Positions 5,151 through 62,551 of a DNA stretch of 64,000 bases are shown here, piece by piece; positions within the stretch are counted from its first letter, which is position 1, and every line of letters starts with the position of its first letter. Source of the DNA: Candidatus Liptonbacteria bacterium. Lineage in GTDB: Bacteria > Patescibacteriota > Minisyncoccia > UBA6257 > 2-01-FULL-56-20. Both the position numbers and the translations under genes were made by a program. The notes under the pieces were generated by a model. It was given only the letters and a program-made list of their open reading frames with translations, did not search any database and had not been told where the DNA came from. The stretch is from assembly GCA_023244935.1 (NCBI GenBank), contig JAHFLJ010000001.1, positions 13,327 through 77,326 on the forward strand, in the 5' to 3' direction.

Positions 5151-5245
5151 TAACGTGTAACGCGTAACTTGTAACGCGTAGCACAAAGACGTGTAGCGTA
5201 TAGCATGTAACTTGTAGCGTGGAATACAAGTTGTATTTGTCATCC
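5151..5245. repeat. two ~33-bp direct repeat units upstream of gpmI
   Basis: acgtgtaacgcgtaacttgtaacgcgtagcac and acgtgtagcgtatagcatgtaacttgtagcgtgg occur in tandem. Confidence 0.4.
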
Positions 5246-5288: not shown

Positions 5289-5399
5289 AATATACTAATG
5301 TCTGCGAATTATACGAATAATACTAATAATAAGATTTAGCGAGATAGACACCAAAAAGAGATAAATCAACGAAAAGCATCCAATCACGCGGAGAATAGT

Positions 5400-5530
5400 T
5401 CTTCTTGGCCGGGCTACGAAGTTTGCCGAGCATGGTCTCCGCCTGTCGGCGGAGTCGGCAAGCTGAGTGCCAGTTCAAAACCCGCTGGGGTTTTGAATGT
5501 AGGCCAAAAAGGACTATTCGGAGCGCCCTG
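5400..5530. repeat. GC-rich structured element (hairpin ttcaaaaccc-gctg-gggttttgaa); related motif at 15295-15340
   Basis: A local GC spike in an AT-rich intergenic region. It shares ccgccNgtcggcgg...ggag(a)agtcgg with the element downstream of the 14811 gene. Confidence 0.35.
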
Positions 5531-5643
5531 GACGAGTATGCCAATACTCTGTATACTATCAAAGTCCATTCAAAAGTCTTAACACTTCAGTAGGAGCCCC
5601 CCGAAAGGGATTTTAATGAAGATTTTAATCACAAAAAAATACA

Positions 5644-8081: not shown

Positions 8082-9653
8082 CTACCGAGCACAGCGGAAC
8101 CCGATGCTGCCGCCCGTATCCGTCGGACCAGTGCTCAAGATCAACGTCTCTACCCCAGCGTACGTGTCATAATACCAATCCCCACCGCGAACGAAGGCGT
8201 AAGGAGTTGACCCTCCGGCGGAGTATGAGGAATTTATCCTGCCAATTCCCTGAGTTGCGGTCCAGGCTGAATTTGAAGGTCCAGCGAGAGTTGGAGATAA
8301 GGTTCCCCAATTTGTTATGTTCGGAAACTCTCGCCATCCTGTCGGCTGTGGTTGATTTCCGTTGGTGATTGTGTCGTTAGTCCATTCCCAAACGTTCCCT
8401 GCCAAGTCCCAAATAATTTGACCATTCGAAAGAGTGTGGGCACGTCGGTGAGTGAAGTCGGCTGTGACAAGGTAGGTTGAATTGGTGTCGTCTGCAGATG
8501 CAATTTGCGCCGCAGAACCATTTGAATTTCCTCTGCCCAAGTATCCACTTCCGACTGAACTTCCGCTCCAATTACTTGATACACTCTGTGCATTCCAAGC
8601 AATTGTTTGCCATTCGTTGTTGGTGATGAGATGTGCTCCGATAGATTGGCAGTAAGAATGTGAAGTTGTTTGATCGATATTTGCGATTGGGTATCCGGCA
8701 GGAGTGGAAGTTAAATACCTTCCGGATGTATTACAAGGATATCCAGAATTATTATACGTTTGATATCCGGTATCGTAAGGTGCCGATCCAAGCGGACCCG
8801 TAGTATCCGCGCACTTGGCTTCGTATTTCATCACCCAAAAATCAGATGTTCCGAAGGTGGAGTTGCCAGGGACTCTAATCCAACCATTTGGAAAGATTCC
8901 TGCTCCAAGATTCATATTATTTCCCATTTCAAAAGAAGCGGGCGCTGTGCCTCCGTCGGTATTTCCTTGCACAATGTATTTTTGGGATTCCAGGGATACG
9001 GCGGTTAGCTTCCAGCTTCCTCCAGACATATAGGTGTAATAATTCAGACTTGTAGTGGTATTGATTGGATCGATGGGAAGTTGTGAAATTGGAGAATTGG
9101 ATGATATCTTTTGGAAGTTAACCGGAATCCAGCCGGTGCCGTCGGTTTTACGGAGATTGGCAGTGGTGACACAATTGTATTGCCAGCCGGTTGGGAGAGT
9201 TGGCAGACCTAAGTTGGCGCACGTTGAAGATATGTCCGGAATGGATACATAAACCACCGTGGGTGTTCCCATAGATCCTGTGGAGACATCTGCAGAAAAC
9301 AGATTAAGCGCGGTGTTGATTGTCGAGAGATCCGAGAATCGATTGGAATCTCTGGCTTGTTTGAGTAATTCCCCTGGGTTAAGAGCCATAATAACAACCA
9401 CACTTAAAATCGCGACTAGGGCGAGGACTACCAGGAGTTCGATAAGGGTAAAGCTTCCCCGTTTGTTTACCCTGAGAGTAGTCGAAGCCTTGCCTGCCGG
9501 CAGGCAGGGGTCAGTCTGAGCCTGCGAAGAATCTAAATTAGATCCTTCCCTGCGTTCAGGATGACAGAAAAGAGAATTCAAAAACCTGGATTGTCCAAGC
9601 AAGTTGGACAATGACAGAATAGAAAAGAAACTTCCTTTGTTTTTATTCTTCAT
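8082..9653 (-). CDS. prepilin-type N-terminal domain protein fused to a C-terminal FGE-sulfatase (SUMF1/C-type-lectin-fold) domain; start uncertain
   Basis: NKRGSFTLIELLVVLALVAIL is a class III signal. The C-terminus carries HLITNNEWQ, WDLAGNVWEWT, RGGDW and GFRCAR motifs of the FGE-sulfatase family. The gene is GC-richer than its neighbours. The ORF's first ~60 codons lie in a dispersed repeat, and no ATG/GTG/TTG lies between the repeat and the KRG site. Confidence 0.6.
   Translation of the reverse strand: MKNKNKGSFFSILSLSNLLGQSRFLNSLFCHPERREGSNLDSSQAQTDPCLPAGKASTTLRVNKRGSFTLIELLVVLALVAILSVVVIMALNPGELLKQARDSNRFSDLSTINTALNLFSADVSTGSMGTPTVVYVSIPDISSTCANLGLPTLPTGWQYNCVTTANLRKTDGTGWIPVNFQKISSNSPISQLPIDPINTTTSLNYYTYMSGGSWKLTAVSLESQKYIVQGNTDGGTAPASFEMGNNMNLGAGIFPNGWIRVPGNSTFGTSDFWVMKYEAKCADTTGPLGSAPYDTGYQTYNNSGYPCNTSGRYLTSTPAGYPIANIDQTTSHSYCQSIGAHLITNNEWQTIAWNAQSVSSNWSGSSVGSGYLGRGNSNGSAAQIASADDTNSTYLVTADFTHRRAHTLSNGQIIWDLAGNVWEWTNDTITNGNQPQPTGWREFPNITNWGTLSPTLAGPSNSAWTATQGIGRINSSYSAGGSTPYAFVRGGDWYYDTYAGVETLILSTGPTDTGGSIGFRCAR
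9510..9616. repeat. 107-bp dispersed repeat unit, copy A (copy B at 50990-51096, ~95% identical)
   Basis: gtcagtctgagcctgcgaagaatctaaattagatccttccctgcgttcaggatgac... plus the ttgtccaagcaagttggacaa hairpin. It is internally palindromic and flanked by CCTGCC...GGCAGG palindromes. Confidence 0.7.
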
Positions 9654-9881
9654 TCGTATAATTCCTGCCTGCCGGCAGGCAGGCGTATTGATTCGTAATT
9701 TCGTAATTATTCTAAATTCTATTTTCTGAGTTCTATATTCTATGTTCTAACTATACCACATTTTGCCTCTGGGGGGGGCAACAACAGCTGGGGATAGTTA
9801 AAGGACTCATAGCTTATCAACTTATAACAAATAACTAAAAAGAATTTGAGGCCGGAATTATTAGTGATTGGCGATAAGTCA

Positions 9882-11615
9882 TTAGCCATTCTTCAGCATC
9901 CCCAACATCCCTTCGACGTCTCTAGTATTTATTATATCACTTTTTTTCGCCCAACCGCGACGCGCCTGCGTAATCCCAAATTTCAAAAAATCAAAATGTT
10001 CCGAGGAATGCGCGTCGGAATCAATCGAAAGTTTCACGCCGGAATTTACGCATCTGCGAATATAATCGTCCTTCAAATCCAGCCTATCCGGGTATGCATC
10101 AATTTCTAATATCGTTCCGGTCTCTTTAGCTTTGCGGATAAGCGCCTCGGCGTCTACGGCATATGCCTCTCGCCTTTTAATAACTCTACCGGTTGGATGG
10201 AAAATTATATCTACGTTCTTATTCTCCATCGCTCTACAAATCCTTGCAGTCTGCTCTTTGCCGGATAAATTGAAATTTGAATGTACCGCTCCCCCCACCA
10301 CCTCCAACCTGGAAAGTGTTTTATCCGACAAATCCATGCTTCCGTCTTTTAAAATATCGCACTCACTTCCCTTCAAAATTCTTATCTTGCCGGCGAACTT
10401 TTTATTTAATTTATCAATCTCTGCCATCTGTTTTAAAATTTTTTTATCGTCTAAACCTCCGGTCATCGCCAATCGTTTTGTGTGATCGGTAATCGCGATA
10501 TATTTTAGTCCGCGAGAGATAGCCACCTTCGCCATCTGTTCTATGGAGTGCGCGCCGTCAGTCCAATCGGTTTGCACCTGCAAATCGCCCTGTAAATCCT
10601 TGTAGCCGATAAGTTTCGGCAATTTACCGATCATCGCCGACTCAATTTCACCGGTATTTTCTCTAATCTCCGGCTCGACATACTGAAGTCCAAGCGCGGA
10701 ATAAATCTCCTCCTCAGTTTTTCCGGCAATCTGCTTAAGTCCTCGATAAAGCCCATATTCATTAAGTTTATAGCCTTTTTTTATCGCAAGTTTTCTTAAG
10801 CCGATATTGTGCATCTTAGAGCCGGTAAAATAATTCAATGCCGACCCATAAGAATTTCTTGGCACCACGCGCAAATCAACATCCAATCCGTTTTTCAATT
10901 TTATTGATGACTTAGTTTCTCCATTGGCAACAACCTTGGCAACCGCCTGCATAGAAACAAACTCTTTCATAATTTTTTTGGAATCCTTCACGATTGCCAA
11001 AATATCCAGGTCTCCCACAGTTTCTTTTCCTCTGCGCGTTGACCCGGCAATAACAACGGTTTCAACTCCGGCAACCTCCAGAAGTTTTTCCTTAATTTTT
11101 TCGGCAAATGGCAACGCCTCACCCAAGGTAAATCGCCCACCGGATTTCTTAAGGAACTCGATGCTTTTCAAAATATTTTGTTCTGCCTTCGTTCCGAATC
11201 CTTCAAGCTTAGAAACTTTATGAGCGTTCACTGCTTTCTCGAGAGTAGCCAAGTCTTTTATTTTTAAAGCAAGATATAATTTTTTTATAGACTTAGGTCC
11301 GAGCCCTTCGATGGCGCTAAGCTCTTTTAAATTAACCGGCACGGCTTTTTGAAGCTCCGCGTAATGCGAAGACTTCCCCGTCAGAAGAAATTCTTCGATA
11401 GTTTGCGCAATTGATTTTCCAACCCCGGGAATATTCTCAATTCCTTTAATTCCGTTAGCTTTATAGATACTCACAACCGAATCGGAAAGCTCGGAAACCG
11501 AATCCCCCGCTTTTTCGTATGCTCTCGGCTTAAAAGGTTCTTCTTGCATCGCCAAAAATTCTCCTATTTCGTAAAGTAGTTCCGATACTTCTTCGTTTGT
11601 TTTCTCTTTAATCAC
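9882..11615 (-). CDS. polX: DNA polymerase X family protein with C-terminal PHP domain
   Basis: 577 aa with helix-hairpin-helix motifs (GIENIPGVGKSIA), a Pol-beta-like nucleotidyltransferase (GSTRRGKETVGDLDIL) and a PHP domain (H-rich C-terminal half). Confidence 0.85.
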   Translation of the reverse strand: MIKEKTNEEVSELLYEIGEFLAMQEEPFKPRAYEKAGDSVSELSDSVVSIYKANGIKGIENIPGVGKSIAQTIEEFLLTGKSSHYAELQKAVPVNLKELSAIEGLGPKSIKKLYLALKIKDLATLEKAVNAHKVSKLEGFGTKAEQNILKSIEFLKKSGGRFTLGEALPFAEKIKEKLLEVAGVETVVIAGSTRRGKETVGDLDILAIVKDSKKIMKEFVSMQAVAKVVANGETKSSIKLKNGLDVDLRVVPRNSYGSALNYFTGSKMHNIGLRKLAIKKGYKLNEYGLYRGLKQIAGKTEEEIYSALGLQYVEPEIRENTGEIESAMIGKLPKLIGYKDLQGDLQVQTDWTDGAHSIEQMAKVAISRGLKYIAITDHTKRLAMTGGLDDKKILKQMAEIDKLNKKFAGKIRILKGSECDILKDGSMDLSDKTLSRLEVVGGAVHSNFNLSGKEQTARICRAMENKNVDIIFHPTGRVIKRREAYAVDAEALIRKAKETGTILEIDAYPDRLDLKDDYIRRCVNSGVKLSIDSDAHSSEHFDFLKFGITQARRGWAKKSDIINTRDVEGMLGMLKNG

Positions 11616-14471: not shown

Positions 14472-14615
14472 TTTTATTTATATATTGATCTCGATATATA
14501 AATATTACCACAAAGATGAGCGTTAGTAATCAGCACTAGCCGATAGCCCCACCACCGAGCGAATTAATTTATTATGGTATTGAAGTCTCCTCGCCCCCCC
14601 CCAAATCCTTTAATT

Positions 14616-14740
14616 TTGAGGGATTTCGCGCAGGCTATTTTAGCTTGGTTTTCCGTCGAAGGCGAAAATAAAATAGCCGAGGGACAGTTATAAATTTCCG
14701 CGGAAGAAATTCAACAACAACCCCTCAAAATTACAAAAGA
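14616..14740. mobile_element. MITE-like element with TTTTGAGGG / CCCTCAAAA inverted termini and internal hairpin (family also at 27484-27664 and 55053-55280)
   Basis: cctttaattttgaggg ... cccctcaaaattacaaaag inverted repeats enclose gctattttagcttggttttccg...cgaaaataaaatagc. Confidence 0.45.
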
Positions 14741-14749
14741 TGAGCCAAA

Positions 14750-14777
14750 TTGACACCGAGTAATAAATTCGTATAGC
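14750..14777 (+). promoter_or_regulatory. sigma70-like promoter for the 14811 gene
   Basis: TTGACA(14750-14755)-16 nt-TATAGC. SD AGGAGGG lies 7 nt before the ATG. Confidence 0.5.
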
Positions 14778-16026: not shown

Positions 16027-16138
16027 TCATTTTTCTCATATCATGTATGATATGAGAAAAATATTAGTTACAAATCTCTATATTTATTTTTTAAAAGTTA
16101 TTGGTTATAAGTCACAAGTCATAAGTCGCGCTCCGCGC

Positions 16139-26712: not shown

Positions 26713-27466
26713 AAATATTTCCACAAAAAAACTATTTATTTTTGACCTCGATGGAACGCTAACCGAAAGCAAATCTCCGATTACTACAAAAATGGCGAAC
26801 CTTCTTTCGGCTCTCCTAACCGAAAAAAAAGTTGCGGTAATCTCCGGCGGTAAATTTGCCCAATTTAAAAAACAGTTTATTTCCAAACTAAAAACCGACG
26901 GCTCCGTCTTAAAAAATTTAACTCTATTCCCGACAAACTCCACGGCTTTCTACTCACCAGTTGGCTCGTCATGGAAAAAAATTTACGAAGAGACGCTCTC
27001 CCCGACCGAAAAAACAACGATATTATCTGCTCTAAAAAAACTTCAAAGTTCTCCCTTATACCGGAAACCAAAAAAAGTTTATGGAAAAATAATTGAAGAC
27101 AGAGCAACTCAAATAACTATTTCGGCGCTTGGTCAACTTGCGCCCGTAAGCGCGAAAAAAAAATGGAATAAAATTAGCGACCTCCGCACTATATATATCT
27201 CTGCCTTAAAAAAGGATCTTGGAAAATTTGAAATTAAAAAAGGAGGACTAACCTCGATTGACATAACCCGTGAAGGAATCGATAAAGCTCATGGTATTAA
27301 AAAAATACTCAAAGAATTAAACATTCCCAAAACAGATGCTGTTTTCATAGGAGATGCCTTCTACCCCGGAGGCAACGACGCTCCGGCCAGGAAGGCAGGA
27401 ATTGACTGCATCCCCGTCTCCGGCCCGAAAGAAACCGAAAAAATAATCAAGACGGCTCTCAAGTAG
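26705..27466 (+). CDS. HAD-IIB family hydrolase (phosphomannomutase-like sugar phosphatase)
   Basis: FIFDLDGTLT is HAD motif I. A cap-domain architecture is present, with a C-terminal GDAFYPGGND. Confidence 0.6.
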   Translation: MLKNISTKKLFIFDLDGTLTESKSPITTKMANLLSALLTEKKVAVISGGKFAQFKKQFISKLKTDGSVLKNLTLFPTNSTAFYSPVGSSWKKIYEETLSPTEKTTILSALKKLQSSPLYRKPKKVYGKIIEDRATQITISALGQLAPVSAKKKWNKISDLRTIYISALKKDLGKFEIKKGGLTSIDITREGIDKAHGIKKILKELNIPKTDAVFIGDAFYPGGNDAPARKAGIDCIPVSGPKETEKIIKTALK

Positions 27467-27483
27467 TTTTATCTGGCACTAGT

Positions 27484-27664
27484 GAGATTATTAGTTTTTG
27501 AGAGGTGTCTGAAAAACCTTTTAGCTCGATCCCGCCAAGGGCGGGTAAAAGGTTTTGAAGACAGTTAGATTTTTGCTGTGACTGAGCAAGAGCGAAGAAA
27601 TACCTAAGGCCAGCAGGCCGAGGCAGAAAAAAATCGACACGACCCCTCAAAACTAATAATTGAG
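27484..27664. mobile_element. MITE-like element with ~20-bp inverted termini and internal hairpin
   Basis: Left gagattattagtttttgagagg and right cccctcaaaactaataattgag are inverted repeats. The internal hairpin gtctgaaaaacctttt agctcgatcccgcc aaggg cgggtaaaaggttttgaagac is homologous to 55131-55165. Confidence 0.5.
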
Positions 27665-27705
27665 CGGGTTTGACTTGAATCAAACTTCTATATACCATAC
27701 GCCGC

Positions 27706-39258: not shown

Positions 39259-39380
39259 AGAATATCACCTCTTCGTGGTCACAACAAATTTGCCTTCTTG
39301 GCGGAACGGTATTAATTATCAGCAATAAGTCATTGGTCATTGGTTATCGGTGACCAGTTGTTTTATGTTATTCTAAATAC

Positions 39381-39818
39381 ATGTCCATTATCGCCGAAAA
39401 TCGCAAAGCCCACTTCGACTATATTATAGAAGAAACCATAGAAGCAGGCATCAAACTGCTTGGTTTTGAAGTTAAAAGCGCCAAACACGGTAAACTCGAG
39501 CTCGCCGGAAGCTACGTGATTATTCGTGGCGGAGAGGCCTGGCTGATAAATTCAAAAATTGCCCCGGAACAACCCAAAAATGCCCCTGCAGATTATGAAC
39601 CATCCCATATCCGCAAACTACTTTTAAATAAAAAGGAGATCTCTCGGCTCGCCGGCGTATTAGATCAAAAAACATATTCTGCAGTAGGCCTCTCGGCAAA
39701 AGTAAAAAAGAATTTAATTAAAATCGAAATCGGAGTTGGGCGCTCGAAGAAAAAATCCGACAAACGTGAAACTATTAAAAAACGAGAGACTTTAAGAGAA
39801 ATTCGAAGAGAGGTTTAG
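39381..39818 (+). CDS. smpB: SsrA-binding protein SmpB
   Basis: 145 aa. KAHFDYIIEETIEAGIKLLGFEVKS...KLLLNKKE matches SmpB. Confidence 0.9.
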   Translation: MSIIAENRKAHFDYIIEETIEAGIKLLGFEVKSAKHGKLELAGSYVIIRGGEAWLINSKIAPEQPKNAPADYEPSHIRKLLLNKKEISRLAGVLDQKTYSAVGLSAKVKKNLIKIEIGVGRSKKKSDKRETIKKRETLREIRREV

Positions 39819-39895
39819 TCCTTTATTTTTTGAACTTCGAAACTCACCTTCGCTGGATTTGTCAATAACACACTTTTGTGTTATTATTCAAACAC

Positions 39896-40263
39896 GGGGA
39901 TGATGGGCTTCGCCGAGAGACGGAGAGCTTCCCTGCGAGCCGAGCGCAATCTCGCAAATCTTGCACAAACTACTAACTGCCAACTTTAAAGTTGCAGCTC
40001 CTGCCTACGCCTACGCGTAACGCACGGGGATCTCCTGCCTGATTTATCACGCAAGAGGATCGGCTAGCCTTTGCCCTTTGGGTTAATACCGGTCTTATAT
40101 AAAAGGACTACTTCGCGAAGAGGCGACACGACTCTCGCGGATAAAAAATCGTGTCGTCCTGATCAAAAATCAGAACCGTTTCAAATTTATTTTTGAAACT
40201 ACGCTCGTAGACGGGCTGTCTTTGCCCCTTTCGCACGAGGGTTCAACTCCCTCCATCTCCACA
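39896..40263 (+). ncRNA. ssrA: tmRNA (SsrA)
   Basis: 5' GGGGATGATGGGCTTCGCC...GCGAGCCGAG... and 3' GGACGAGGGTTCAACTCCCTCCATCTCC-ACA are clearly alignable to Bacillus-type tmRNA. The tag ORF GCC AAC TTT AAA GTT GCA GCT CCT GCC TAC GCC TAC GCG TAA (39979-40020) gives ANFKVAAPAYAYA. The promoter TTGTCA-17-TATTAT ends 8 nt before the 5' G. Confidence 0.85.
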
Positions 40264-40266
40264 AAC

Positions 40267-42631: not shown

Positions 42632-42800
42632 GTATATTTGTTTTTTTCGGTCGACGTTTATGCAAATCAAAGAGCTAATACTGATTAAAATAATGCATCC
42701 CCGAAGAAGTTCTTGCAAGCCCCGCGACTGCTTTCTCTTACCTTGTATTCTAAATTCTATTTTCTAGGTTCTATTTTCTATCCACGTTATAATTCCTCCT

Positions 42801-44153: not shown

Positions 44154-44493
44154 AAATTTAGTATAATCACAACCTCAGAATTAACAAATTGAGTCCCTTG
44201 GGCGAGGACTCCGACCCCAACTCCTCCCACCTGTCGAGCAAATTAATTTCTGAGATTCTAGGAATTTTTCCTACCACCAGCGAGCCCCTCCAATTTTAAA
44301 GGGGTATAGCGGAATTATTTTCAGCTTGTTCTCCCGCTTTAGCGGGAGTGAAAATAATGAGCTATAGGTGCCTCTCCTGCTAGAAGGAGAGGACTCCGAC
44401 CCCTTAAAATTCGGAGGGCGAGCCGCTTTGACAGGAACCCCCAAAAATCTTATGATTAGCCAATAAAAGCCTGCGCGAAAGCGCCCAATTCCC

Positions 44494-45003
44494 ATAAAGA
44501 ACGTAAGAATAAACAATCAAATAATCGCACCGGAGGTCAGAGTTATTGATGCTGAAGGAAAGAATCTCGGCGTTTTACCAACAAGCGAAGCCCTTAAACT
44601 TGCCCCGCACGGATCCGGACTCGATTTAATTGAAATCTCTCCAACCGCCAAACCTCCGGTCGCCAGAATAATGAGCTTCGACAAATATCGCTATGAGCAG
44701 GAGAAAGTTGAGAAAAAGCAAAGGCAAGCCAATAAAAACACCGGAATTAAACACGTTCAGATTAGTGCCAGGTCCGCCCAAAATGACTTGCAGGTTAAAC
44801 TCGCCCGCTTGGAAGAGTTTATGAGCGAAGGCCATCCGATTGAGATAGTTATGCGTCTCAAGGGACGCGAAAAAGCCAACAAAGAATTTGCCGGCAAAAA
44901 ACTCACGGAATTTATGGGTATGATTAAAACCGAATACAAAATCATCTCCCCTCCAAAATATGCCGGCAACGGTTTTTCCGCCCAAATTACCAAAAAGGAA
45001 TAG
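44494..45003 (+). CDS. infC: translation initiation factor IF-3 (non-AUG start, ATA/ATT)
   Basis: The reading frame is open from 44467. IKNVRINNQIIAPEVRVIDAEGKNLGVL... aligns to the IF-3 N-terminus. The first ATG (44671) would truncate the N-domain. The ATA at 44494 or ATT at 44488 is a candidate start, as in other bacteria. Confidence 0.8.
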   Translation: MKNVRINNQIIAPEVRVIDAEGKNLGVLPTSEALKLAPHGSGLDLIEISPTAKPPVARIMSFDKYRYEQEKVEKKQRQANKNTGIKHVQISARSAQNDLQVKLARLEEFMSEGHPIEIVMRLKGREKANKEFAGKKLTEFMGMIKTEYKIISPPKYAGNGFSAQITKKE

Positions 45004-50953: not shown

Positions 50954-50989
50954 ACATATTCATTCGTAAAATTCCTGCCGATAGGCAGG

Positions 50990-51096
50990 GTCATTCTGAG
51001 CCCGCGAAGAATCTAAATTAGATCCTTCCCTGCGTTCAGGATGACAGAAAAAAGAATTCAAAAAACTGGATTGTCCAAGCAAGTTGGACAATGACA
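50990..51096. repeat. 107-bp dispersed repeat unit, copy B
   Basis: ~95% identical to 9510-9616, preceded by the cctgccgataggcagg palindrome and followed by an ATTCGTA-rich sequence. It generates the spurious ORF 50960-51175. Confidence 0.7.
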
Positions 51097-51202
51097 AACC
51101 GAAAAGCTTCTTTCTCTTGTTCGTATTATTTTTATTATTCGTAGACATTCGTATATTAATATTGTTATGAGTCACAAGTTATAAGTTATTAGTCATAAGT
51201 TC

Positions 51203-52972: not shown

Positions 52973-53017
52973 ATACTCAGATATTTGAATAAAAACTGAA
53001 AGGAAAAAGGAGTCGTT

Positions 53018-53803
53018 GTGAAGCTTTTCGTTGCTCTACTTGTCGCGGTTCTCTCATTTCTCGCGACCGGATGCGGGGTGGTCATCGAGGCGACAAAGTC
53101 GTCGCTCTCGGGAATAAAAATTTCGTCCCCGGTCGTCGACCAGCTCGGCTTCCGAGCCGAATCTCACAAGCTCATCATCAAAAACCGCTCGTCTCTTACG
53201 GCGGGAATCATTATCAACGGGTACAACTCCAAATTGGAGTTGTACCCCAACGAGGACTTGGTCTTTACCAGCTCGTGGGAGCCGTTCGTCAATGCCGAAA
53301 TGACCATCGTCCTCGTTTTTCGCGAAACCGACGGTTCATACGGCGGCTACGCGGAGAAGACTTTCAATTCGGGCAGCTTTGCCCAGTCGGAAGCGTGGAC
53401 ACTCTTCGCCTCCGACATCACCTGCTATGGTCAACGACTCGCGGAGTCGGACGATGCCCCCGAATTCGAACCGAGAGTTAGGCAGTTTCGCCTTCCTCGC
53501 GAGTGGTTCAATGGGACAAGCTTCTTCGGGATGATTAATGACACGCAAGGAGAGTTGCGCGTCACCACCAACGGATCCGTCCGCACCGAAACCCTCGCAC
53601 CCGGCGAAGTCTACACGGTTCGGACAAGAGACTGGTCATCGTCTTCTCGTTGGGGAAACCGCCAACCTGTGATCATCCAGCTCGAAGGCTGGGATGATGA
53701 TGGTCGATACATCGGAATTTGTGAACGACATTTCTATCCGACCTCGGACGGCGTCCGTTCACAGTTCGAGGCCGTGGCTCCCTCCTCCCTTTATCGTCGC
53801 TAG
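53018..53803 (+). CDS. hypothetical lipoprotein (GTG start), strongly GC-rich relative to the window
   Basis: The lipobox LATGC follows the signal peptide MKLFVALLVAVLSFLATGC. SD AAAGGAG lies 5-6 nt upstream. A terminator follows. GC is ~55%. Confidence 0.5.
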   Translation: MKLFVALLVAVLSFLATGCGVVIEATKSSLSGIKISSPVVDQLGFRAESHKLIIKNRSSLTAGIIINGYNSKLELYPNEDLVFTSSWEPFVNAEMTIVLVFRETDGSYGGYAEKTFNSGSFAQSEAWTLFASDITCYGQRLAESDDAPEFEPRVRQFRLPREWFNGTSFFGMINDTQGELRVTTNGSVRTETLAPGEVYTVRTRDWSSSSRWGNRQPVIIQLEGWDDDGRYIGICERHFYPTSDGVRSQFEAVAPSSLYRR

Positions 53804-53853: not shown

Positions 53854-53972
53854 ACGGATAAATTCCTTAAAAATGACCCTTCGTAGCCACGCGCTACGGG
53901 GCGAAGTAGAGTTCCGCGAAGTCGCGGCTAGTTATTAGTGATAAGTAATTAGTTATAAGTTATTATTAACCC

Positions 53973-54509: not shown

Positions 54510-55011
54510 TTTTGAAAAAATAAATATTCTCGGAATCGACCCTGGCACAAAACGCGCCGGTTTCGGAGTTATATCCAAAGAAGGAAACATTTTGCGGCTC
54601 CTTGACGCGGGAATTTTTGCCGTCGGAAAATCCACTACAAATGAATCTCTCTTAATTATAAAAAATCAAATAGACCTTTTGATAAAAAAATATAACCCTT
54701 CTGTATTCGCGATAGAAAAACTTTTTTTCTCCACCAATCAAAAAACCGCGATGAGCGTCGCGGAGTCTCGCGGAGTTTGTATCCTCTCTGCTTTAGAAAA
54801 AAATATTCCTATTTTGGAGTTTTCCCCTAACGAAATCAAAAGCTCAATAGCCGGATTCGGAATGGCCGACAAAAAAGCTATTTTGAAAATGGTGCGACTG
54901 ATTCTAAAAGAACCAAATTTAAAAGTCATAGATGACGCCAGCGATGCACTTGCCATTGCAATCGTGGGAGCCCAAAACCTTAGACTTATAAAAACAGAGG
55001 GTGGCCACTAG
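54499..55011 (+). CDS. ruvC: crossover junction endodeoxyribonuclease RuvC
   Basis: ILGIDPGTKRAGFGVI and the catalytic Asp/Glu pattern are present. The start MPNNFEK at 54499 overlaps the yebC-like end. Confidence 0.85.
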   Translation: MPNNFEKINILGIDPGTKRAGFGVISKEGNILRLLDAGIFAVGKSTTNESLLIIKNQIDLLIKKYNPSVFAIEKLFFSTNQKTAMSVAESRGVCILSALEKNIPILEFSPNEIKSSIAGFGMADKKAILKMVRLILKEPNLKVIDDASDALAIAIVGAQNLRLIKTEGGH

Positions 55012-55052
55012 CCAATAGGCGACACCAAAGACTATTAGATTTGTATTTTCTC

Positions 55053-55280
55053 CCCAGCGAATCCTTTAATTTTGAGGGGTACCTCGTGGATTTCTTCTCT
55101 TTACCCCAAACGAGATTGTTGGTTTTGCGGGGTGTCTGAGAAACCTTTTAGCTTGGTCCCGCCTCTTTCCTCCCATCGACGAGCAAACTAATTTTCGGAG
55201 GTGTCGCGCAGTTCATTCCGGCTTGGTCCCCGCCGATTAGGCGGGGCGGAATGAACGAGCGGCAGCGCTAATTTCCGCAG
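55053..55280. repeat. composite hairpin-repeat region (TTTTGAGGG-type terminus plus two AGCTTGGTCCC(C)GCC hairpin modules)
   Basis: ccccagcgaatcctttaattttgagggg. The sequence ggtgtctgagaaaccttttagcttggtcccgcc is homologous to 27495-27528. A second module is ttcattccg gcttggtccccgcc gattag gcggggc ggaatgaa. Confidence 0.4.
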
Positions 55281-55377
55281 GAGAAATTAGACAGCGACCT
55301 CCGGAAATTACGTTTGTGAGCGGCATTGACAAGTTTCTTTAACTTTTTATACTGTATTCCATAAAAAAGATATAAAT

Positions 55378-55686: not shown

Positions 55687-58122
55687 ATGATTAAAGTTTT
55701 AAGTAAAATGAGCAGGTTCTTAAAGCGCAAAAGTAAAAAAGAACTATTTTTATATTTGCTCGGGATTATTGGAATTATAATTTTAGCCGGAGGCCTTTTT
55801 GTTCTTTATTTAATCAAAACCCTTCCCTCTGTAGAACAAATTAAAACCAGAGAAATGTCCCAGTCTACCAAAATTTTTGACCGAAGCGGAACGGTTCTTT
55901 TATATGAAATTAGCGCCGGAGAAAAGCGCACGGTTATTCCGGAAGATAAGATTCCCCAATCTCTAAAAGACGCGATACTTTCGATTGAAGATGAAAAATT
56001 TTATGAAGAACCGGCTTTTGACTGGAGATCGATGATCCGCGCGCTTCTCGCCAATCTAAAAAGTGGAGAAGTGGTGCAAGGAGGATCAACCATAACTCAG
56101 CAGTTGGCAAAAAACGCGTTCCTTTCGGCTGAACAAACTATTCTACGCAAAGTTAAAGAGTTGATTCTGGCGGTAAGAATTAATCAATATTATTCGAAAG
56201 ACAAAATCCTTTGGCTTTATATAAACGAAGTTCCTTTCGGACCTACTGTTTATGGGGCGGAGTCCGCGAGTTTTTTATATTTCGGGAAATCCGCAACTGA
56301 CCTTTCTGTTCCCGAAAGCGCGGTTCTCGCCGCCATACTCAAAGCGCCAAGCTACTATTATCCGGGAGGAAATCACGTGCCCGAACTTTTAAAACGAAAA
56401 GATTTGGTCTTAAAAAAGATGAAAGATCTCGGAAAAATATCCGAAAAAGAATTTTCCTCCGCGATTAAAGAAAAAATTAAATTTATTCCGATTATCTCCG
56501 GCATAAAAGCCCCTCATTTTGTTATGACGGTACAAGATTATTTAATAAATAAATATGGAGAAGAATTGGTAAGAAAGGGTGGTCTTCAGATTACAACTAC
56601 TCTCGATTGGTCTTTGCAACAAGCCGCGGAAAAGGCAGTTAAAGATGGTGCTTTAAACAACGAAAAACTTTACAAGGGAAAGAATGCCGCGCTGGTAGCT
56701 GAAAACGCAACCTCGGGTCAAATTTTGGCGCTGGTTGGCTCTCGGGACTACTTCGAGACTGAAAATGATGGAAATTTTAATGTCGCCACTCAAGGACTTC
56801 GCCAGCCGGGATCTTCTCTTAAGCCTTTCGTATATCTAGCGGCTTTTGAAAAAGGATTGACTCCCGACACGATTCTTTTTGATGTCCCCACGGAGTTTTC
56901 CGCAAACAACGCTGTCTGTCCGCCGGTTCCTAATTATAAAAGCGAAAACACAAAATGTTTTCATCCGGAAAATTTTGACCATATTTTTGTCGGCCCGGTT
57001 AGCATGAGAGATGCGCTGGCTCAATCAATCAATATTCCTGCGGTAAAAACCCTTTATATTGCCGGTCTCAATAATGTTATCAAAAAAGCTAATCTATTCG
57101 GACTTCAAACTCTTAACGACCCCTCTATATACGGACTCTCTTTGGTTTTAGGTGGAGGAGCGGTTCACTTAATCGACTCGGTTGAAGCTTATTCAACTCT
57201 CGCAAACGATGGAGAAAGAGCGGAACAATCCTATATCCTCGAAATTAAAGATGCCAAAGGAAATATTTTAGAAAAATATTCTCCTAAAATCTCCAGAGCT
57301 ACCGAACCTCAATATGCCCGAGAAATAAATAATATTCTTTCTGATGCAACTGCTCGCGGGCCTCTTTTCCAGAATAGTCTTGATTTAACCGTTTTCCCGG
57401 GAAAAGACGTAGCTATGAAGACCGGTACCAGCAATGATTATCGAGATGCGTGGACTCTTGGTTATACTCCTGAATTAGTTGTAGGTGTTTGGGCTGGAAA
57501 CAACGATAACTCCCCGATGCAAAGAAGTGGCTCAAGCCTCTTGGCGGCTGTTCCGATTTGGAATGCTTTTATGAAAGAAGCTTTGAAAATAATTCCAACC
57601 GGAGCATTTATAAAACCTGATATCAGAATTCCGGAAAAACCTATTTTACGTGGAGAATATGTAGTTAATGGTCAAATTCATAATATTCTTTATTATATCG
57701 ACAAAAATAATCCAACCGGACCGGTTCCGGAGAACCCTCAAGAAGATTCTCAATTTATTAATTGGGAAACCGGAGTTCTTTCTTGGGTTTCTCGACACGC
57801 AACTGAACTCCAAACGAGGTTTTCCTCCTCCGGGTTTGGACAAATAGACGTCAAAATAAATAATCCACAAAATAATTCTTTTTCTTCCGGAGAAATATTT
57901 CTTAATACTTCAATCTCCTCACTCAATAATTTATCGGAAGTAAGAGTTTATTTTAATGATACTTTAATTTACAATGCCGGACTTCCTAAAGAAAAAACTT
58001 ATAATTTTGTTTGGTCTTTTACTCCTGTTCAAATAAATCAACAAAATACCTTATCGGTTGAGGTCTTTGATGAGACCGGGAAAAGTAGCAAATCTTCGGT
58101 TATAATTTATAAACAAAATTAA
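55687..58122 (+). CDS. penicillin-binding protein 1A (bifunctional glycosyltransferase/transpeptidase)
   Basis: An N-terminal TM is followed by GT51 motifs (EDEKFYEEP, GGSTITQQLAKN) and transpeptidase SxxK (SSLKP), SxN and KTG(T) motifs. Confidence 0.85.
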   Translation: MIKVLSKMSRFLKRKSKKELFLYLLGIIGIIILAGGLFVLYLIKTLPSVEQIKTREMSQSTKIFDRSGTVLLYEISAGEKRTVIPEDKIPQSLKDAILSIEDEKFYEEPAFDWRSMIRALLANLKSGEVVQGGSTITQQLAKNAFLSAEQTILRKVKELILAVRINQYYSKDKILWLYINEVPFGPTVYGAESASFLYFGKSATDLSVPESAVLAAILKAPSYYYPGGNHVPELLKRKDLVLKKMKDLGKISEKEFSSAIKEKIKFIPIISGIKAPHFVMTVQDYLINKYGEELVRKGGLQITTTLDWSLQQAAEKAVKDGALNNEKLYKGKNAALVAENATSGQILALVGSRDYFETENDGNFNVATQGLRQPGSSLKPFVYLAAFEKGLTPDTILFDVPTEFSANNAVCPPVPNYKSENTKCFHPENFDHIFVGPVSMRDALAQSINIPAVKTLYIAGLNNVIKKANLFGLQTLNDPSIYGLSLVLGGGAVHLIDSVEAYSTLANDGERAEQSYILEIKDAKGNILEKYSPKISRATEPQYAREINNILSDATARGPLFQNSLDLTVFPGKDVAMKTGTSNDYRDAWTLGYTPELVVGVWAGNNDNSPMQRSGSSLLAAVPIWNAFMKEALKIIPTGAFIKPDIRIPEKPILRGEYVVNGQIHNILYYIDKNNPTGPVPENPQEDSQFINWETGVLSWVSRHATELQTRFSSSGFGQIDVKINNPQNNSFSSGEIFLNTSISSLNNLSEVRVYFNDTLIYNAGLPKEKTYNFVWSFTPVQINQQNTLSVEVFDETGKSSKSSVIIYKQN

Positions 58123-59225
58123 GACTTAAGTATCGGCATTAATATATACACAAACGATCCTTCATTCGGCTCTCGAATTGTCGCCGGTTTACTTTCGTCG
58201 TTTATTCCGATAAAAACTTCTTCGGTTTTTACGGCTCTTACTCCGTCACTTAAATATTTCCAATTAAAGCTTATTTTTTCGAATGAGCCTTTTATTTTTG
58301 AAGAAAGAGTATAAACATTTTCTCCGACAGATTCTTCGTTAGAAAATATTTTAATTGCTCGGTCTCCTTCTTTTTCAATATTTATCTCGTTAGTTCTTGA
58401 ACTTAAAATCGAGGATAATTTTAAGGCATTTAATAAATCATTTTTATTTATGACTACTTCGGCATCTACCTTTTTAGGTATCAGCTGTTTATAATCCGGA
58501 AATTTATTATCCAGTAAACGAGAAATTATCTCTACTTTTTCGTTTTCCAATAAAATTTGGCTTTCTTCGATATATATATTCACTTCGCCTTCTTTAAAAA
58601 TTTTTGAAGCTTCCACCGCGGTTTTCAAAGGGATCAAACAAGTAATATTTTCCATTCCTTCTTGTTTAAAATCTCCCTCTTTTATTTTTTTCTCGGCAAG
58701 CCGGAAGCTATCCGTGGAAGTTAAAACTAAAAACTCGTTCTCCAGCGTGAATAAAACTGAATTTAGATCCGGTCGGTTTTCTAATACCTGCGCCGCGGAG
58801 AGAACTTGTTCAAGTGAGCTTTTAAAATTGTCGGCACTCATCGAAATAAAATTCTTTTTACTTTTTATTTTAGGAATTAGAGGATATTCATCCGAAGAAA
58901 TACACTGAAGCTTGGCATTATAGTTATCCGTCTTAATATCTAAAACTCCGTTTTTAACTTCCAAATTTATTCTTTCGGTTTGGATTCCATTTACTATTCC
59001 TGAAAATAAAGCCAACGGTATTGTCGTCACTCCTTCTTCAATTACCTTCCCGGCTATGTAAGCGGTTATCGCAATTTCGAGGTTGGTCGAAACTAATTTA
59101 ATCTTATTATTTTTCGCCTCAAATAATATATTTTTTAATATCGGCAATTCTTTATTCTCTCCTCCTGATCTGGAAACAGAGTCTAATCCTTCTTTTAATT
59201 TTTCTTTAATTACTACTACATTCAT
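58119..59225 (-). CDS. dnaN: DNA polymerase III subunit beta (sliding clamp)
   Basis: 368 aa with three-domain clamp architecture, immediately downstream of dnaA. Confidence 0.85.
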   Translation of the reverse strand: MNVVVIKEKLKEGLDSVSRSGGENKELPILKNILFEAKNNKIKLVSTNLEIAITAYIAGKVIEEGVTTIPLALFSGIVNGIQTERINLEVKNGVLDIKTDNYNAKLQCISSDEYPLIPKIKSKKNFISMSADNFKSSLEQVLSAAQVLENRPDLNSVLFTLENEFLVLTSTDSFRLAEKKIKEGDFKQEGMENITCLIPLKTAVEASKIFKEGEVNIYIEESQILLENEKVEIISRLLDNKFPDYKQLIPKKVDAEVVINKNDLLNALKLSSILSSRTNEINIEKEGDRAIKIFSNEESVGENVYTLSSKIKGSFEKISFNWKYLSDGVRAVKTEEVFIGINDESKPATIREPNEGSFVYILMPILKS

Positions 59226-59345
59226 GTATTAATAAGATAGTTGTTGTTGTAGAGACGACTAATTCTGTGGATAAATCGGTTTGTTCTAGGTTTTAATTGA
59301 ATCGGTGTTGTGGATAAAAACGCTTTTGCCCGGGGATTAAGGGGA
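59226..59345. promoter_or_regulatory. candidate oriC segment with two perfect DnaA boxes
   Basis: tgtggataa (reverse complement TTATCCACA) at 59266-59274 and 59309-59317, in the dnaA-dnaN gap. A third near-consensus box (tgttgataa) lies at 60773-60781 upstream of dnaA, together with AT-rich tracts. Confidence 0.55.
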
Positions 59346-60704
59346 TTATTCCTTGAAAACAAGTTCTTTAATTAAATTCATTTTTTGGCTCAAGGAAGAA
59401 TTTTGGTTGATTTCCCTGGAGATTTTCTCAACCGCGTGAATTGCAGTGGTATGATCCCTACCCATCTTTTCCCCAATGTGTGGGTAAGACATCTCCAGGA
59501 TTTCCCTAATTAAGAACATCGCTACTTGGCGAGGCTCAACAATCTCCTTTTTTCGCACTCTCCCGGTCATTTCTTCCACGGAGATATTGTAAAAATCGGA
59601 AACAGCTTTAATAATTTGATCTTCGGAAACTCGATGAGAAAAATCTTTAACCGTTTTTCGAATAATCTCTTCAACCTCTTTTGGATTAAGGTCAATTCTT
59701 TTGGCTTCTCGATAAAAAAGTATTTTATTTAAAACTCCTTCGATTTCTCGGACGTTCTTTTTTACTTTTCTTGCTATTAGATCAATAACCTCTTCACTTA
59801 GATTCCTATCTTGTTCTAATAATTTACTCTTAATAATCGCCACCCGCATCTCGTATTCCGGAAACCCGATGTCTGCGGTCAGTCCTGCCTCAAAACGCGA
59901 CCTGAGGCGTTCCTCAAGGGTTGGTAGGGATTGTGGAGGACGGTCGGAAGAAATTATTATTTGTTTGTTTAGTTCATGCAGAGCGTTAAAAGTATAGAAA
60001 AATTCTTCTTCGGTTGCTCTTTTACCGCCCACAAACTGAATATCATCGATAATTAAAAGATCGCAGTCTCGATATCTCCTTTTAACGTCTTCCATTCTTT
60101 TATTTTTTATTCCCCAAATCACATCGCTGGTAAATTTTTCGGAGGTCACATATCGCGGCCGTAATTTTCCTCCGTATCGCGCCTTAACTTCATTTCCAAT
60201 GCCTTGTATTAAATGAGTTTTTCCTAAACCAACCCCTCCATAAACAAAGAAAGGATTATATTTGGTTCCAATCTCGTCGATAATCGCGTTTGCGGCCGCG
60301 AAGGCCAATTCGTTTGAAGAACCAACCACAAAAGATTTTAAAGTGTAGCGGGAATTTAAATTTGTCTCCGGATCTATCTTAAAATCCAAATTTATTTTAT
60401 TTTCGAATCGTTGAAAATCCCCCGTGGTAATTTTTTGAGTTTTCGGCTCAAGCACGGCAGTGCTATGAACTACAAACTCCAAGTTTTTTGTAGAAGGGTC
60501 AAAATTTCTAACCGCTCCGAGAATATTTTTATTATATTTATTTTCAACCCACTCCTTCGCGAAATTATTCGGCAAAGAGATAATCAAAGTTCCATCTCGC
60601 TTATCGACAATCCTGCTATTTTTAAGCCAGGTTGCAAAATTAGCCCTAGAAAGCTGAACCTCCATCTCACCTAAAGCAGACTGCCAAAGTTTTTCCAAAT
60701 CCAT
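59346..60704 (-). CDS. dnaA: chromosomal replication initiator DnaA
   Basis: AAA+ Walker A GGVGLGKTHL, sensor motifs, and a C-terminal DNA-binding signature (HTTAIHAVEKI). 452 aa. Confidence 0.9.
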   Translation of the reverse strand: MDLEKLWQSALGEMEVQLSRANFATWLKNSRIVDKRDGTLIISLPNNFAKEWVENKYNKNILGAVRNFDPSTKNLEFVVHSTAVLEPKTQKITTGDFQRFENKINLDFKIDPETNLNSRYTLKSFVVGSSNELAFAAANAIIDEIGTKYNPFFVYGGVGLGKTHLIQGIGNEVKARYGGKLRPRYVTSEKFTSDVIWGIKNKRMEDVKRRYRDCDLLIIDDIQFVGGKRATEEEFFYTFNALHELNKQIIISSDRPPQSLPTLEERLRSRFEAGLTADIGFPEYEMRVAIIKSKLLEQDRNLSEEVIDLIARKVKKNVREIEGVLNKILFYREAKRIDLNPKEVEEIIRKTVKDFSHRVSEDQIIKAVSDFYNISVEEMTGRVRKKEIVEPRQVAMFLIREILEMSYPHIGEKMGRDHTTAIHAVEKISREINQNSSLSQKMNLIKELVFKE

Positions 60705-60808
60705 TGATAGTATTCTATGCGTAAAATCAGATTCGTCAAAGGACGCTGTTTTTAGGTAACTGCGGATATCCTGTTGATAACTTATTTTTTTTGTGATAAA
60801 ATAGAATC

Positions 60809-60943
60809 ATGTCCCAAACATACAACCCTAAAAAGAAAAAAAGAGTAAGAACTCATGGGTTTCTGACCAGAAACACAACAAAAGGAGGAAAAAAGGTATT
60901 AAAACGCAGAAGAGCCAAAGGAAGAAAGAAGCTTTCCGTTTAA
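60809..60943 (+). CDS. rpmH: 50S ribosomal protein L34
   Basis: A 44-aa [47 protein letters not shown], absent from the ORF track. It holds the canonical position upstream of rnpA. Confidence 0.85.
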
Positions 60944-60948
60944 AAACC

Positions 60949-61260
60949 ATGCTAAATAAAAAGAATAGGCTATCCCCTACGGAATTTAGGGGGCAAAAAG
61001 CCCATTCTTTTTTTATTTCAAAATTTAAAGTGTTATTTGTCAAAAAAAATGAAGGAGTTAATCGTTTTGCGGTTATTATTCCGGCTACAGTAGTAAAAAA
61101 AGCCGTCGATAGGCATTATTGGAGGCGGAGGATAGCTGAAACTGCCAGACTGTGGAAAAATAAAGGATTAGATGCTATTATCTTTGTTAAGAATGCCCCG
61201 CAGAAAAAGGAAAAAGATGAGTTGCTATCGGCTCTATCTAAAGAAATTAATAAAATATAA
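60949..61260 (+). CDS. rnpA: ribonuclease P protein component
   Basis: 103 aa, basic, with the RNR-like motif region (HYWRRRIAE). Flanked by rpmH and yidC. Confidence 0.8.
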   Translation: MLNKKNRLSPTEFRGQKAHSFFISKFKVLFVKKNEGVNRFAVIIPATVVKKAVDRHYWRRRIAETARLWKNKGLDAIIFVKNAPQKKEKDELLSALSKEINKI

Positions 61261-61968
61261 ATGATCGGCTCACTATTTAACACAATCCTCTACAAACCAC
61301 TCTTAAACCTTCTTATTCTGCTATATGAGCATGTAACCTTCGGAGATTTAGGGCTGGCCATTATATTAATAACCATTCTCGTTAGAATTGTTCTTTTACC
61401 GCTTTTTGAAAAACAAACCAGGTATCAGCTGGTGATGCAAAAAATTCAGCCTCAAATAAAAGAAGTGGAAAAAAAGCACAAAGGAGATAAAGCTAAACAA
61501 ACCGAGGCAATGATGGCGATTTATAAGGAACACAAAACAAATCCTTTTTCCGGCTTTTTAATCCTATTCATTCAAATTCCGATACTTATCGCGCTATATA
61601 AGATAATCTCGGCCGTGGTGGGCGCAGCTGGGTTTTCCGGTGACCTGTATTCTTTTGTCCCGGCCCCCGAAACAATCAATATTATGTTCTTGGGCTTGAT
61701 AAATTTAGGAAAAGCCAATATCCTAATCGTAGTTCTGGCGGCTCTAGCTCAGTTTTTCCAAGCTAAAACCACCATGTTCAAAAAGAAGCCCGGAGAGGAG
61801 GAGACTCCTCAGGAGAAAGCGGGAAGAACGATGGTCTATGTAACTCCCCTTCTAACCGTTTTTCTGTTTTATAACTTTCCGGCGGCCATCTCTCTCTATT
61901 GGCTCGTGGCTTCAGCGCTTTCCATTATCCAGCAGATAATAATTAAGAGAAAAATAGCAAATGATTAA
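61261..61968 (+). CDS. yidC: membrane protein insertase YidC (short Gram-positive-type)
   Basis: 235 aa with 5 TM helices and a conserved Arg in TM1 (ILVRIVLLPL). Confidence 0.85.
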   Translation: MIGSLFNTILYKPLLNLLILLYEHVTFGDLGLAIILITILVRIVLLPLFEKQTRYQLVMQKIQPQIKEVEKKHKGDKAKQTEAMMAIYKEHKTNPFSGFLILFIQIPILIALYKIISAVVGAAGFSGDLYSFVPAPETINIMFLGLINLGKANILIVVLAALAQFFQAKTTMFKKKPGEEETPQEKAGRTMVYVTPLLTVFLFYNFPAAISLYWLVASALSIIQQIIIKRKIAND

Positions 61969-62478: not shown

Positions 62479-62551
62479 CCCACATTCTGTCATCCTGAAC
62501 AAAGGGAATGTTCTCTTCTTATTAATACACTAGATTTCCTGCCTAAAGTTA

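Follow-up and report, generated by a model that had tools for sequence, protein, structure and literature searches.

A family of structured intergenic repeats abutting promoters in Candidatus Liptonbacteria

A 64,000-nt stretch (hereafter the window, meaning this whole stretch) of the genome of a Candidatus Liptonbacteria bacterium, one of the Patescibacteria (Parcubacteria/Paceibacteria), carries five full copies, together with fragments, of a repeat of ~127–175 nt that is intergenic at every occurrence and reaches a density of about one per 13 kb. All five full copies lie on the + strand. The family of structured intergenic repeats is real and new, and both its three-way-junction body and its exact position at the edge of promoters are unusual for repeats of the kind represented by miniature inverted-repeat transposable elements (MITEs) and by REPINs, hairpins built from repetitive extragenic palindromic (REP) sequences. 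We put at somewhat better than even, about 0.55, the probability that this is a lineage-restricted, non-coding, non-autonomous mobile repeat family of the MITE/REPIN kind, which targets promoter edges and is probably handled as single-stranded DNA.

Each unit begins with a subtype-specific 5′ module, C-rich and with GAGC at its end (TTCCTACCACCAGCGAGC in the D-type, ATCTGGCACTAGTGAG in the A-type), followed by a ~4-nt spacer and a body of ~127–175 nt. In every copy the body folds into a three-way junction of an outer stem of ~17–20 bp (P1) and two hairpins (P2 and P3). P2 is composed of a 4–6-bp basal stem, a GA-type internal loop, a 10-bp stem, a 7-nt 5′ bulge of sequence GCWYGDT and a GC-rich tip of 6–7 bp. 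P3, the second hairpin, is followed by the joint GACnnCGA and then by the 3′ arm of P1; the two hairpins are different from one another and bear different conserved motifs. RNA fold z-scores are −5 to −6, and both strands fold equally well.

Across nine copies, both sides of the pair have changed at 43 of the 50 pairs, and 93.2% of cells are paired, compared to 62.8% after shuffling (none of 500 shuffles reached the observed value) and 40–52% when the partners were slid. The alignment behind these values was fitted to the model; the same covariation was seen by eye and in independent MAFFT/RNAalifold runs. The outer stem varies in sequence among copies while keeping its complementarity, with both-side changes in 13 of its 17 pairs, and compensatory changes are also seen inside single subtypes. 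The aligned copies thereby show a predicted structure that is maintained by compensatory change. An earlier note on this DNA had described conserved termini, TTTTGAGGG and CCCTCAAAA. These are not conserved, and a freely covarying stem stands in place of sequence-recognised inverted repeats.

We scanned both strands of the window, and ~72 kb of the same genome was seen overall. A structure-only descriptor with no sequence constraint (a stem of at least 7 bp, a 6–10-nt 5′ bulge, a GC-rich tip stem and a 3–7-nt loop) returned only four sites on the + strand, each with the bulge GCWYGDT, including a previously unreported one at 5420–5464. A covariance model of the P2 hairpin only (R1) picked out exactly five full copies; these are all on the + strand, the minus strand has none, and the rest of the window scores at the level of ordinary hairpins. 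A full-length covariance model (R2; 134 positions, 50 pairs, one branch point), trained on five copies, picked up three untrained copies at 56–60 bits, copy A of the list below (57 bits) among these, and its matches to the family range over 56–137 bits.

For comparison we used related loci from L003 (CAZTBQ01), L166 and L167 (both from the SRR29243431 assembly), L164 (SRR21915725) and L023 (CAYQKB01), plus L034, L027 and L038. The comparison set includes a genus-level cluster of at least five species in which four-fold degenerate sites are 34–63% identical pairwise, i.e., essentially saturated; L023 is a more distant genome outside this close cluster, with an RNase Y 61% identical. The copies and remnants in the window are as follows.

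5337–5350, + strand: TAGCGAGATAGACA, upstream of copy E, the decayed remains of the 5′ part of an older B-type copy, clearer in L003 and L167
5394–5520, + strand: copy E (E-type), upstream of rny, matched by the descriptor, R1 and R2
14607–14740, + strand: copy B (B/C-type, partly decayed), an R2 match whose stems hold five A–C and three other mismatches
27466–27487, + strand: A-type 5′ module ttttatctggcactagtGAG, which recurs beside the A-type copy of L164
27488–27661, + strand: copy A (A-type, full), matched by R2 at 57 bits untrained, with a fold z-score of −6.2
27484–27664, + strand: parts of copy A, namely P1 at 27484–27505 / 27643–27664, P2 at 27506–27563 with the bulge GCTCGAT, an extra internal hairpin, and P3 at ~27609–27620
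44196–44256, + strand: fragments D′ (3′ half of P3 plus GACTCCGACCCC) and D″ (5′ module plus GAGCaaatTAATTTctgag, the start of P1)
44268–44419, + strand: copy D (D-type) with its 5′ module ttcctaccaccagcGAGC; the body is 44287–44419 and all 50 of the 50 model pairs are Watson–Crick
55060–55163, + strand: C1, a 3′-truncated mosaic remnant that ends at the tip of P2
55164–55317, + strand: copy C2 with its C-rich 5′ module tctttcctcccatcgacGAGC; the body is 55185–55317, with full P1, P2 and P3

C1 is composed of a 5′ arm of P1 matching copy B over 19 identical nucleotides and a 5′ half of P2 of the A-type. The element that the earlier note placed at 27484–27664 is thus a full copy. Its proposed 125-bp relative at 14616–14740 is indeed a full, partly decayed copy; the termini said to be the same are not, the outer stem differing in sequence. 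At 55053–55280, where a terminus and two internal modules had been noted, the sequence does belong to the family and resolves into the truncated C1 plus a complete C2 that runs past the end given, to 55317. The motifs reported as related at 44195–44425 are related, and amount to a complete copy D preceded by two fragments. That description of the family had overlooked copy E, the three-way junction, the exact abutment on −35 boxes and the single orientation of the copies.

R2 found no matches in 740 kb of unrelated viral DNA and none in ~370 kb of more distant Patescibacteria loci. One metagenome scan with a pattern of the 3′ arm, GAGC and −35 box gave two matches, neither of which fits R1, one being intragenic and the other (L031) non-coding with an R2 score of nil. 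On viral contigs, the P2 pattern gave 120 chance matches, none fitting the model, and the P3 pattern gave none, so no link to phages was seen. Searching the window against Rfam 15 at gathering score returned only tRNA and tmRNA (transfer-messenger RNA), and permissive scans of copies A, D and C returned matches at chance level only. We found nothing relevant in the literature on Patescibacteria repeats, MITEs or structured RNAs. A hairpin of like design occurs in a related Paceibacterota locus (L008, 8710–8763, minus strand), with a 15-bp stem, a 6-nt bulge TCCTCG and a tip TCCCCGC/GCGGGGA; it lacks the sequence motifs of the family and is matched by neither model.

Contigs of three independent assemblies begin or stop within or beside copies A and C2 (L001; L002, starting at 27545; L039, starting at 55204; L032, ending at 55344). 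The repeats or their hairpins break de Bruijn assemblies of this organism. Such breaks make assembly within the elements difficult, which could lend some credit to the idea that the family is an assembly artefact, or a chance likeness among unrelated hairpins or terminators. We consider that idea practically negligible: the same copies are assembled identically across independent samples and assemblers, family matches score 56–137 bits with zero matches in the 740 kb of control DNA, and the pattern of the junction with the promoter has three matches where 0.00 are expected by chance.

That junction is the second defining property of the family. 3′ of P1 come (n)GAGC, four variable bases, the −35 hexamer of a sigma-70-type promoter, a spacer of 16–17 nt and the −10 hexamer. 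The five junctions in the window are given here.

5520–5557, + strand: junction of copy E, GGAGC-gccc-TGGACG (5529–5534)-N17-TATACT (5552–5557), the rny promoter
14742–14777, + strand: junction of copy B, GAGC-caaa-TTGACA (14750–14755)-N16-TATAGC, the promoter of a 124-aa CxxC gene (14811)
27662–27698, + strand: junction of copy A, GAGC (27662–27665), N4, TTGACT (27670–27675), a 17-nt spacer and TACCAT; the exonuclease gene starts at 27706
44420–44456, + strand: junction of copy D, GAGC-cgct-TTGACA (44428–44433)-N17-TATGAT, the promoter upstream of infC-rplT
55318–55353, + strand: junction of copy C2, GAGC-ggca-TTGACA (55326–55331)-N16-TATACT, the promoter of an 82-aa gene and penicillin-binding protein (PBP) operon

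For copy B the promoter scan itself had chosen TAGCAT, at 18-nt spacing, as the −10 box. At all five window copies, exactly 4 nt separate GAGC from the following −35 box of a + strand gene, and GAGC-N4 precedes the −35 box at none of ~15 other promoter-like sites in the window. Over all genomes, ten copies and remnants have a co-oriented gene next to them, and all ten share one orientation, the body being directly upstream of GAGC-N4 and a −35 hexamer; two of these ten have variant junctions (GAAT-cccc in L167 and AGC-tcc in L164). The downstream genes encode RNase Y (rny), a small CxxC protein, an RNase-H-fold exonuclease, infC-rplT, and an 82-aa protein followed by the PBP. Upstream, the neighbouring gene is divergent at copies B, D and E, whereas copies A, C and that of L023 lie between co-directional genes. 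Because the upstream gene is divergent at three copies and the element lies upstream of the −35 box, the element does not serve the upstream gene as a terminator, and it is not included in the downstream mRNA.

The position of the element relative to the promoter bears on whether the fold is selected in RNA or in DNA. The copies might be paralogous small RNA genes or cis-regulatory leaders, with the fold selected in RNA from either strand, and the very strong covariation in a three-way junction, the conservation of unpaired nucleotides (the bulge GCWYGDT, the GA-rich internal loop and the joint GACnnCGA) and the fold z-scores are all features that such an RNA family would show. Read-through transcription is also probable for the A, C and L023 copies, given their co-directional neighbours. 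Nonetheless, the stem mismatches, with 14 G–U against 12 A–C, show no G–U excess and some copies are perfectly Watson–Crick; the fold is as good on one strand as on the other; no conserved upstream promoter or terminator was found for the element, and 5′ of E the species cannot be aligned. The element is moreover outside the downstream mRNA, has a divergent upstream gene at B, D and E, matches no Rfam family, and can be replaced by another subtype at one and the same locus. We therefore regard a structured RNA family as improbable.

Taken together, the absent G–U excess, the folding of both strands, the lack of a promoter or terminator of its own and the lack of an Rfam match argue, at the level of sequence, against selection on an RNA made from one strand, and we favour the view that it is as DNA that the structure counts. 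The bulge, the GA loop and the joint, which are unpaired, strand-specific and conserved, resemble features recognised by a protein. Particular RNA functions were discarded as well: an intrinsic terminator, on the grounds that there is no U-tract, that canonical terminators are used elsewhere in the genome and that three copies lie in divergent spacers; a riboswitch or leader, on account of the position upstream of the −35 box; and a hammerhead or other ribozyme, as no model matches.

The same promoters in related species carry different occupants. At the rny promoter, the window and L003 both have an E-type copy, and the two are 93% identical, whereas between the same genomes four-fold sites are 46%, the promoter 75% and the 5′ untranslated region (5′UTR) 80% identical. 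The sequence 5′ of E is unalignable between them (26% identity), and a conserved promoter was not seen there. In L167 the occupant of this site is a D-type copy (127.8 bits), while L034, its closest relative, has an rny spacer of 146 nt with a normal promoter and no element; L027 and L038 likewise have no element at the rny promoter. Upstream of the rny element, L003 (9680–9712) and L167 (8875–8910) have a small hairpin in common, TGTCATCCCGGGCTCGACCCGGGATCCAGCGA, and the window has a CCTGCCTGCCGGCAGGCAGG palindrome there.

At the B locus, the promoter of the CxxC gene, the occupant is a decayed B-type copy in the window, a D-type copy in L003 and an A-type copy in L164, with the downstream promoter and 5′UTR orthologous in all three. 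The L003 copy is 82–85% like window copy D and only ~60% like the syntenic copy B. The L164 copy, which is decaying, is ~96% identical to window copy A in the P3 region, and its P1 is wholly different yet complementary. The C locus of L166 retains just ~45 nt, consisting of the 5′ module, half of P3 and GAGCgggaTTGACA. D-type copies from different loci in different species are 81–90% identical, and the distant genome L023 has one full copy with the exact bulge and a P3 as in C2.

In three two-genome comparisons (the B, rny and C loci), GAGC-N4 and the promoter remain specific to the locus when the subtype of the body changes: the window and L003 have GAGCCAAATTGACAC at the B locus, where L164 instead reads AGC-tcc-TTGACT; the window and L167 have cccTGGACGAGT..GCCAAT at rny; and the window and L166 have GAGCGG[C/G]ATTGACAA at the C locus. 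Since GAGC-N4 and the promoter stay put in this way, the exchangeable unit is the 5′ module plus everything from the 5′ arm to the 3′ arm of P1. The earlier note had suggested TA or TTA target-site duplications; there are none, and what recurs on both flanks is GAG(C), of which the 5′ GAGC is part of the subtype-specific module. On these comparisons of orthologous loci, copies are gained or lost between species, and some are truncated or mosaic.

Layering of old and new copies is visible at three loci, where decayed 5′ halves of older copies lie upstream and the intact copy is always promoter-proximal. C1 precedes C2; D′ and D″ precede D; and at rny a B-type 5′ half precedes E in the window and L003 and the D-type copy in L167. 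The remnants C1 and L167 both end at the tip of P2. This arrangement fits either nested insertion, with a new copy landing inside the resident one, or gene conversion, provided that the repeated 3′ parts then recombined; the GAGC-N4 of the resident would in that event be left where it was.

One alternative is a promoter-upstream module at −40 to −175, selected by the host as structured DNA or as a transcript, that tunes or insulates the promoter and has spread mainly by recombination or gene conversion and not by transposition. It could act, for example, as a platform for protein binding, as a block to read-through, or by means of an A-tract of the 3′ arm that resembles an UP element. Such a module would account for the exact abutment on the −35 box at five of five window loci, for the absence of any transposase seen, for the presence of an element of some subtype at the B locus in each of three species, and for an E copy whose 93% identity between species, next to 46% at four-fold sites, exceeds that of both the promoter and the 5′UTR. 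It would also suit strain L040, 99.45% identical to the window, in which SNP-free (single-nucleotide polymorphism) elements lie beside a SNP-dense spacer: ~20 SNPs per 160 nt at 54894–55055 (the 3′ end of ruvC and the spacer) halt exactly at the 5′ edge of C1, the following 335 nt of C1, C2 and promoter are identical, and a second SNP cluster lies at 53013–53065.

A host-selected module is harder to reconcile with the orthologous rny promoters of L034, L027 and L038, which are normal and lack the element, with the mere remnant kept at the C locus of L166, with the decay of copies B and L164, with ~10 other strong promoters in the window that have no element, and with the L023 copy, which is not at a promoter. 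Truncated remnants and mosaics resemble turnover, not maintenance. We consider this alternative unlikely. As for the high conservation of E, it could come from a function in the host, from selection for mobility, or from a recent overwriting of E by a conserved master copy.

The mobile-family reading has to account for the single orientation of the copies, for which replication offers a frame. The genes dnaN (−), dnaA (−), rnpA (+), yidC (+) and jag/R3H (+) lie at 58119–62395, and from this gene order oriC is expected in the spacer 60705–60949 (~60.8 kb). GC skew of the + strand is negative throughout the window. The five loci share one replichore and one strand polarity, and each precedes a + strand gene, oriented head-on to replication. 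The minus strand is the lagging-strand template, and on it the promoter-linked copies lie 3′ of 5′-TGTCAA-3′, the complement of the −35 box, with GAGC-N4 between the two.

Under a model of mobility, the hairpins would be recognised, in single-stranded form, by an enzyme that acts in trans and is likely of the HUH/Y1 type, as for REP sequences and their associated tyrosine transposases (RAYTs) or for the insertion sequences (ISs) of the IS200/IS605 family, and the element would be integrated beside a short target on the lagging-strand template. If that target were TGTCAA, it would explain the abutment on the −35 box, the co-orientation with the downstream gene and the lack of copies at promoters of minus-strand genes. 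One subtype might replace another when a copy inserts into the resident one, or through gene conversion between copies, with the repeated 3′ parts recombining afterwards. A secondary effect on the host through the adjacent promoter, by way of an upstream A-tract or of insulation, is possible.

Several observations weigh against a mobile family of this kind. A Pfam search of 30 window ORFs (open reading frames), in the ~72 kb of genome seen, and the gene tables of the related loci revealed no transposase, RAYT or recombinase. The orientation fits the lagging-strand template at five of five loci, and with five loci on one replichore only this is statistically weak. The 50-bp three-way junction is far more elaborate than the known hairpins of IS200 or REP elements, and the 93% conservation of the syntenic E copy would be equally expected from a function at the level of the host. 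The copy of L023, the sole one beyond the ten described above, sits between two opposite-strand genes with no −35 box or promoter after it.

The rny polymorphism is itself ambiguous. The earlier note had called for empty sites in relatives; the rny promoter is element-free in L034, L027 and L038, but the L034 promoter differs also in its −35 box and spacer, and there is no clean empty site at nucleotide resolution. Up to the −10 box the L167 rny allele resembles the window (22 of 26 bases), and from that box on it is identical to L034; given this recombinant look, homologous exchange of whole alleles between species contributes to the pattern, and such exchange, not transposition, could explain the polymorphism at rny.

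The earlier assignment to MITE-like elements therefore holds in part. The repeats are small, non-coding and dispersed in multiple copies with hairpins; orthologous sites (the rny, B and C loci) have differing occupants, subtype swaps or no element; remnants are nested; and the likeness between copies exceeds that of neutral sites. Terminal inverted repeats (TIRs) of conserved sequence in common with a parent IS are missing, as are a fixed-length target-site duplication (TSD) and an autonomous partner in the ~72 kb; a search of the window for any autonomous element that shares these ends (inverted repeats at most 3 kb apart, and the AATTTTGAGGG motif) returned nothing above chance.

The family can be compared with several described systems. 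Correia elements (NEMIS) of Neisseria and the ERIC and BOX sequences are intergenic repeats of ~100–150 bp with long hairpins, often beside genes and sometimes influencing promoters or transcripts; those of the BOX type are mosaics built of modules. In Correia elements there are conserved 26-bp TIRs, TA duplications and promoter boxes of their own. The repeats described here, compared with these by description and with no claim of sequence similarity, differ in having freely covarying stems, no TA duplication and a promoter that is part of the locus.

Integron attC sites are alike in being imperfect palindromes in which structure counts over sequence, with strand-specific extrahelical bases, folding as single-stranded DNA and repeated insertion beside a promoter. 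They are unlike the present elements, which have no R′/R″ GTTRRRY cores, no integrase and no gene cassettes, which neighbour syntenic housekeeping genes, and which stand upstream of a −35 box instead of downstream of a Pc promoter. An attC identity was discarded, as the ends read ...TTTTGAGGG / CCCTCAAAA...GAGC, with no RYYYAAC / GTTRRRY core sites.

REPINs are hairpins with compensatory changes, whose clusters arise from insertion into one another (PMC3116915). The REPIN/REP-RAYT system resembles the present family in being short, non-coding, extragenic and multi-copy with compensated hairpins, in the possibility of a 'clover' of two inner hairpins within an outer stem, in its nested clusters and in its persistence in a lineage with conservation of sequence (PMC3116915). 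In our repeats, by contrast, the inner hairpins P2 and P3 are unrelated, where a REPIN pairs two inverted REP copies; a GTAG-type REP head is missing; the three-way junction, of 50 bp, makes for a larger body, which is placed exactly at the −35 box; and no RAYT was seen in ~72 kb plus the related gene tables.

IS200/IS605 elements and their miniature derivatives (palindrome-associated transposable elements, PATEs) share with our repeats the lack of classical conserved TIRs or of TSDs; their ends are recognised by structure, not sequence, as those of our repeats would be. They insert in one orientation beside a short specific target (TTAC for IS608), with a bias in which orientation follows the lagging-strand template (PMC5027513). 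In contrast, neither tnpA nor tnpB was found in the ~72 kb, the target proposed here derives from five loci, and where IS200-type ends are two small subterminal hairpins, these repeats have a long-range outer stem with a junction.

A bolder proposal can be made: that Candidate Phyla Radiation bacteria have a previously undescribed class of single-stranded-DNA hairpin elements which, mobilised by some enzyme, seek out the upstream edge of sigma-70 −35 boxes via TGTCAA on the lagging-strand template, repeatedly overwrite earlier copies there and permanently cap head-on housekeeping promoters, and which may have been co-opted as a promoter-upstream module. In this full form we hold the proposal to be doubtful, on the unlikely side. 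Were the targeting true, it would constitute a natural system that recognises promoter edges, bearing on transposon biology and on promoter evolution in reduced genomes, and possibly offering a targeting tool. The mobile DNA of the tiny, reduced genomes of Patescibacteria is barely described. The repeats hamper metagenome assembly and are dense enough to matter in annotating these genomes, and the full-length covariance model is now usable for finding further copies.

The window holds other features of note. From the promoter after copy D to the first ATG/GTG/TTG infC ORF, which holds the C-terminal domain of IF3 only, there are ~240 nt (44434–44670), and the true start of infC is probably a non-canonical codon upstream of that ORF. 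Another repeat of ~120 nt, unrelated to the family, occurs at 9489–9620 and 50970–51096, 96% identical and with no Rfam match; it starts with the palindrome CCTGCC..GGCAGG, holds GTCAGTCTGAGCC...GGATGACAGAA and TTGTCCAAGCAAGTTGGACAA, and its palindrome alone is also found at 5269 and 9664. Many spacers contain arrays of 7-nt units (TTCTAnn/TAGAAnn, GTAACGY, TTATAAG/TCATAAG), often as inverted blocks, at 1263–1355, 5151–5229, 9702–9759, 9858–9893, 16088–16126, 39309–39344, 42740–42783, 51148–51200, 53922–53967 and 62393–62491, and similar arrays are present in L003 and L167. Finally, within 39381–40264, a tmRNA gene (39896–40264; tag ANFKVAAPAYAYA) directly follows an smpB-sized ORF and has its own promoter, TTGTCA-N17-TATTAT, at 39859.

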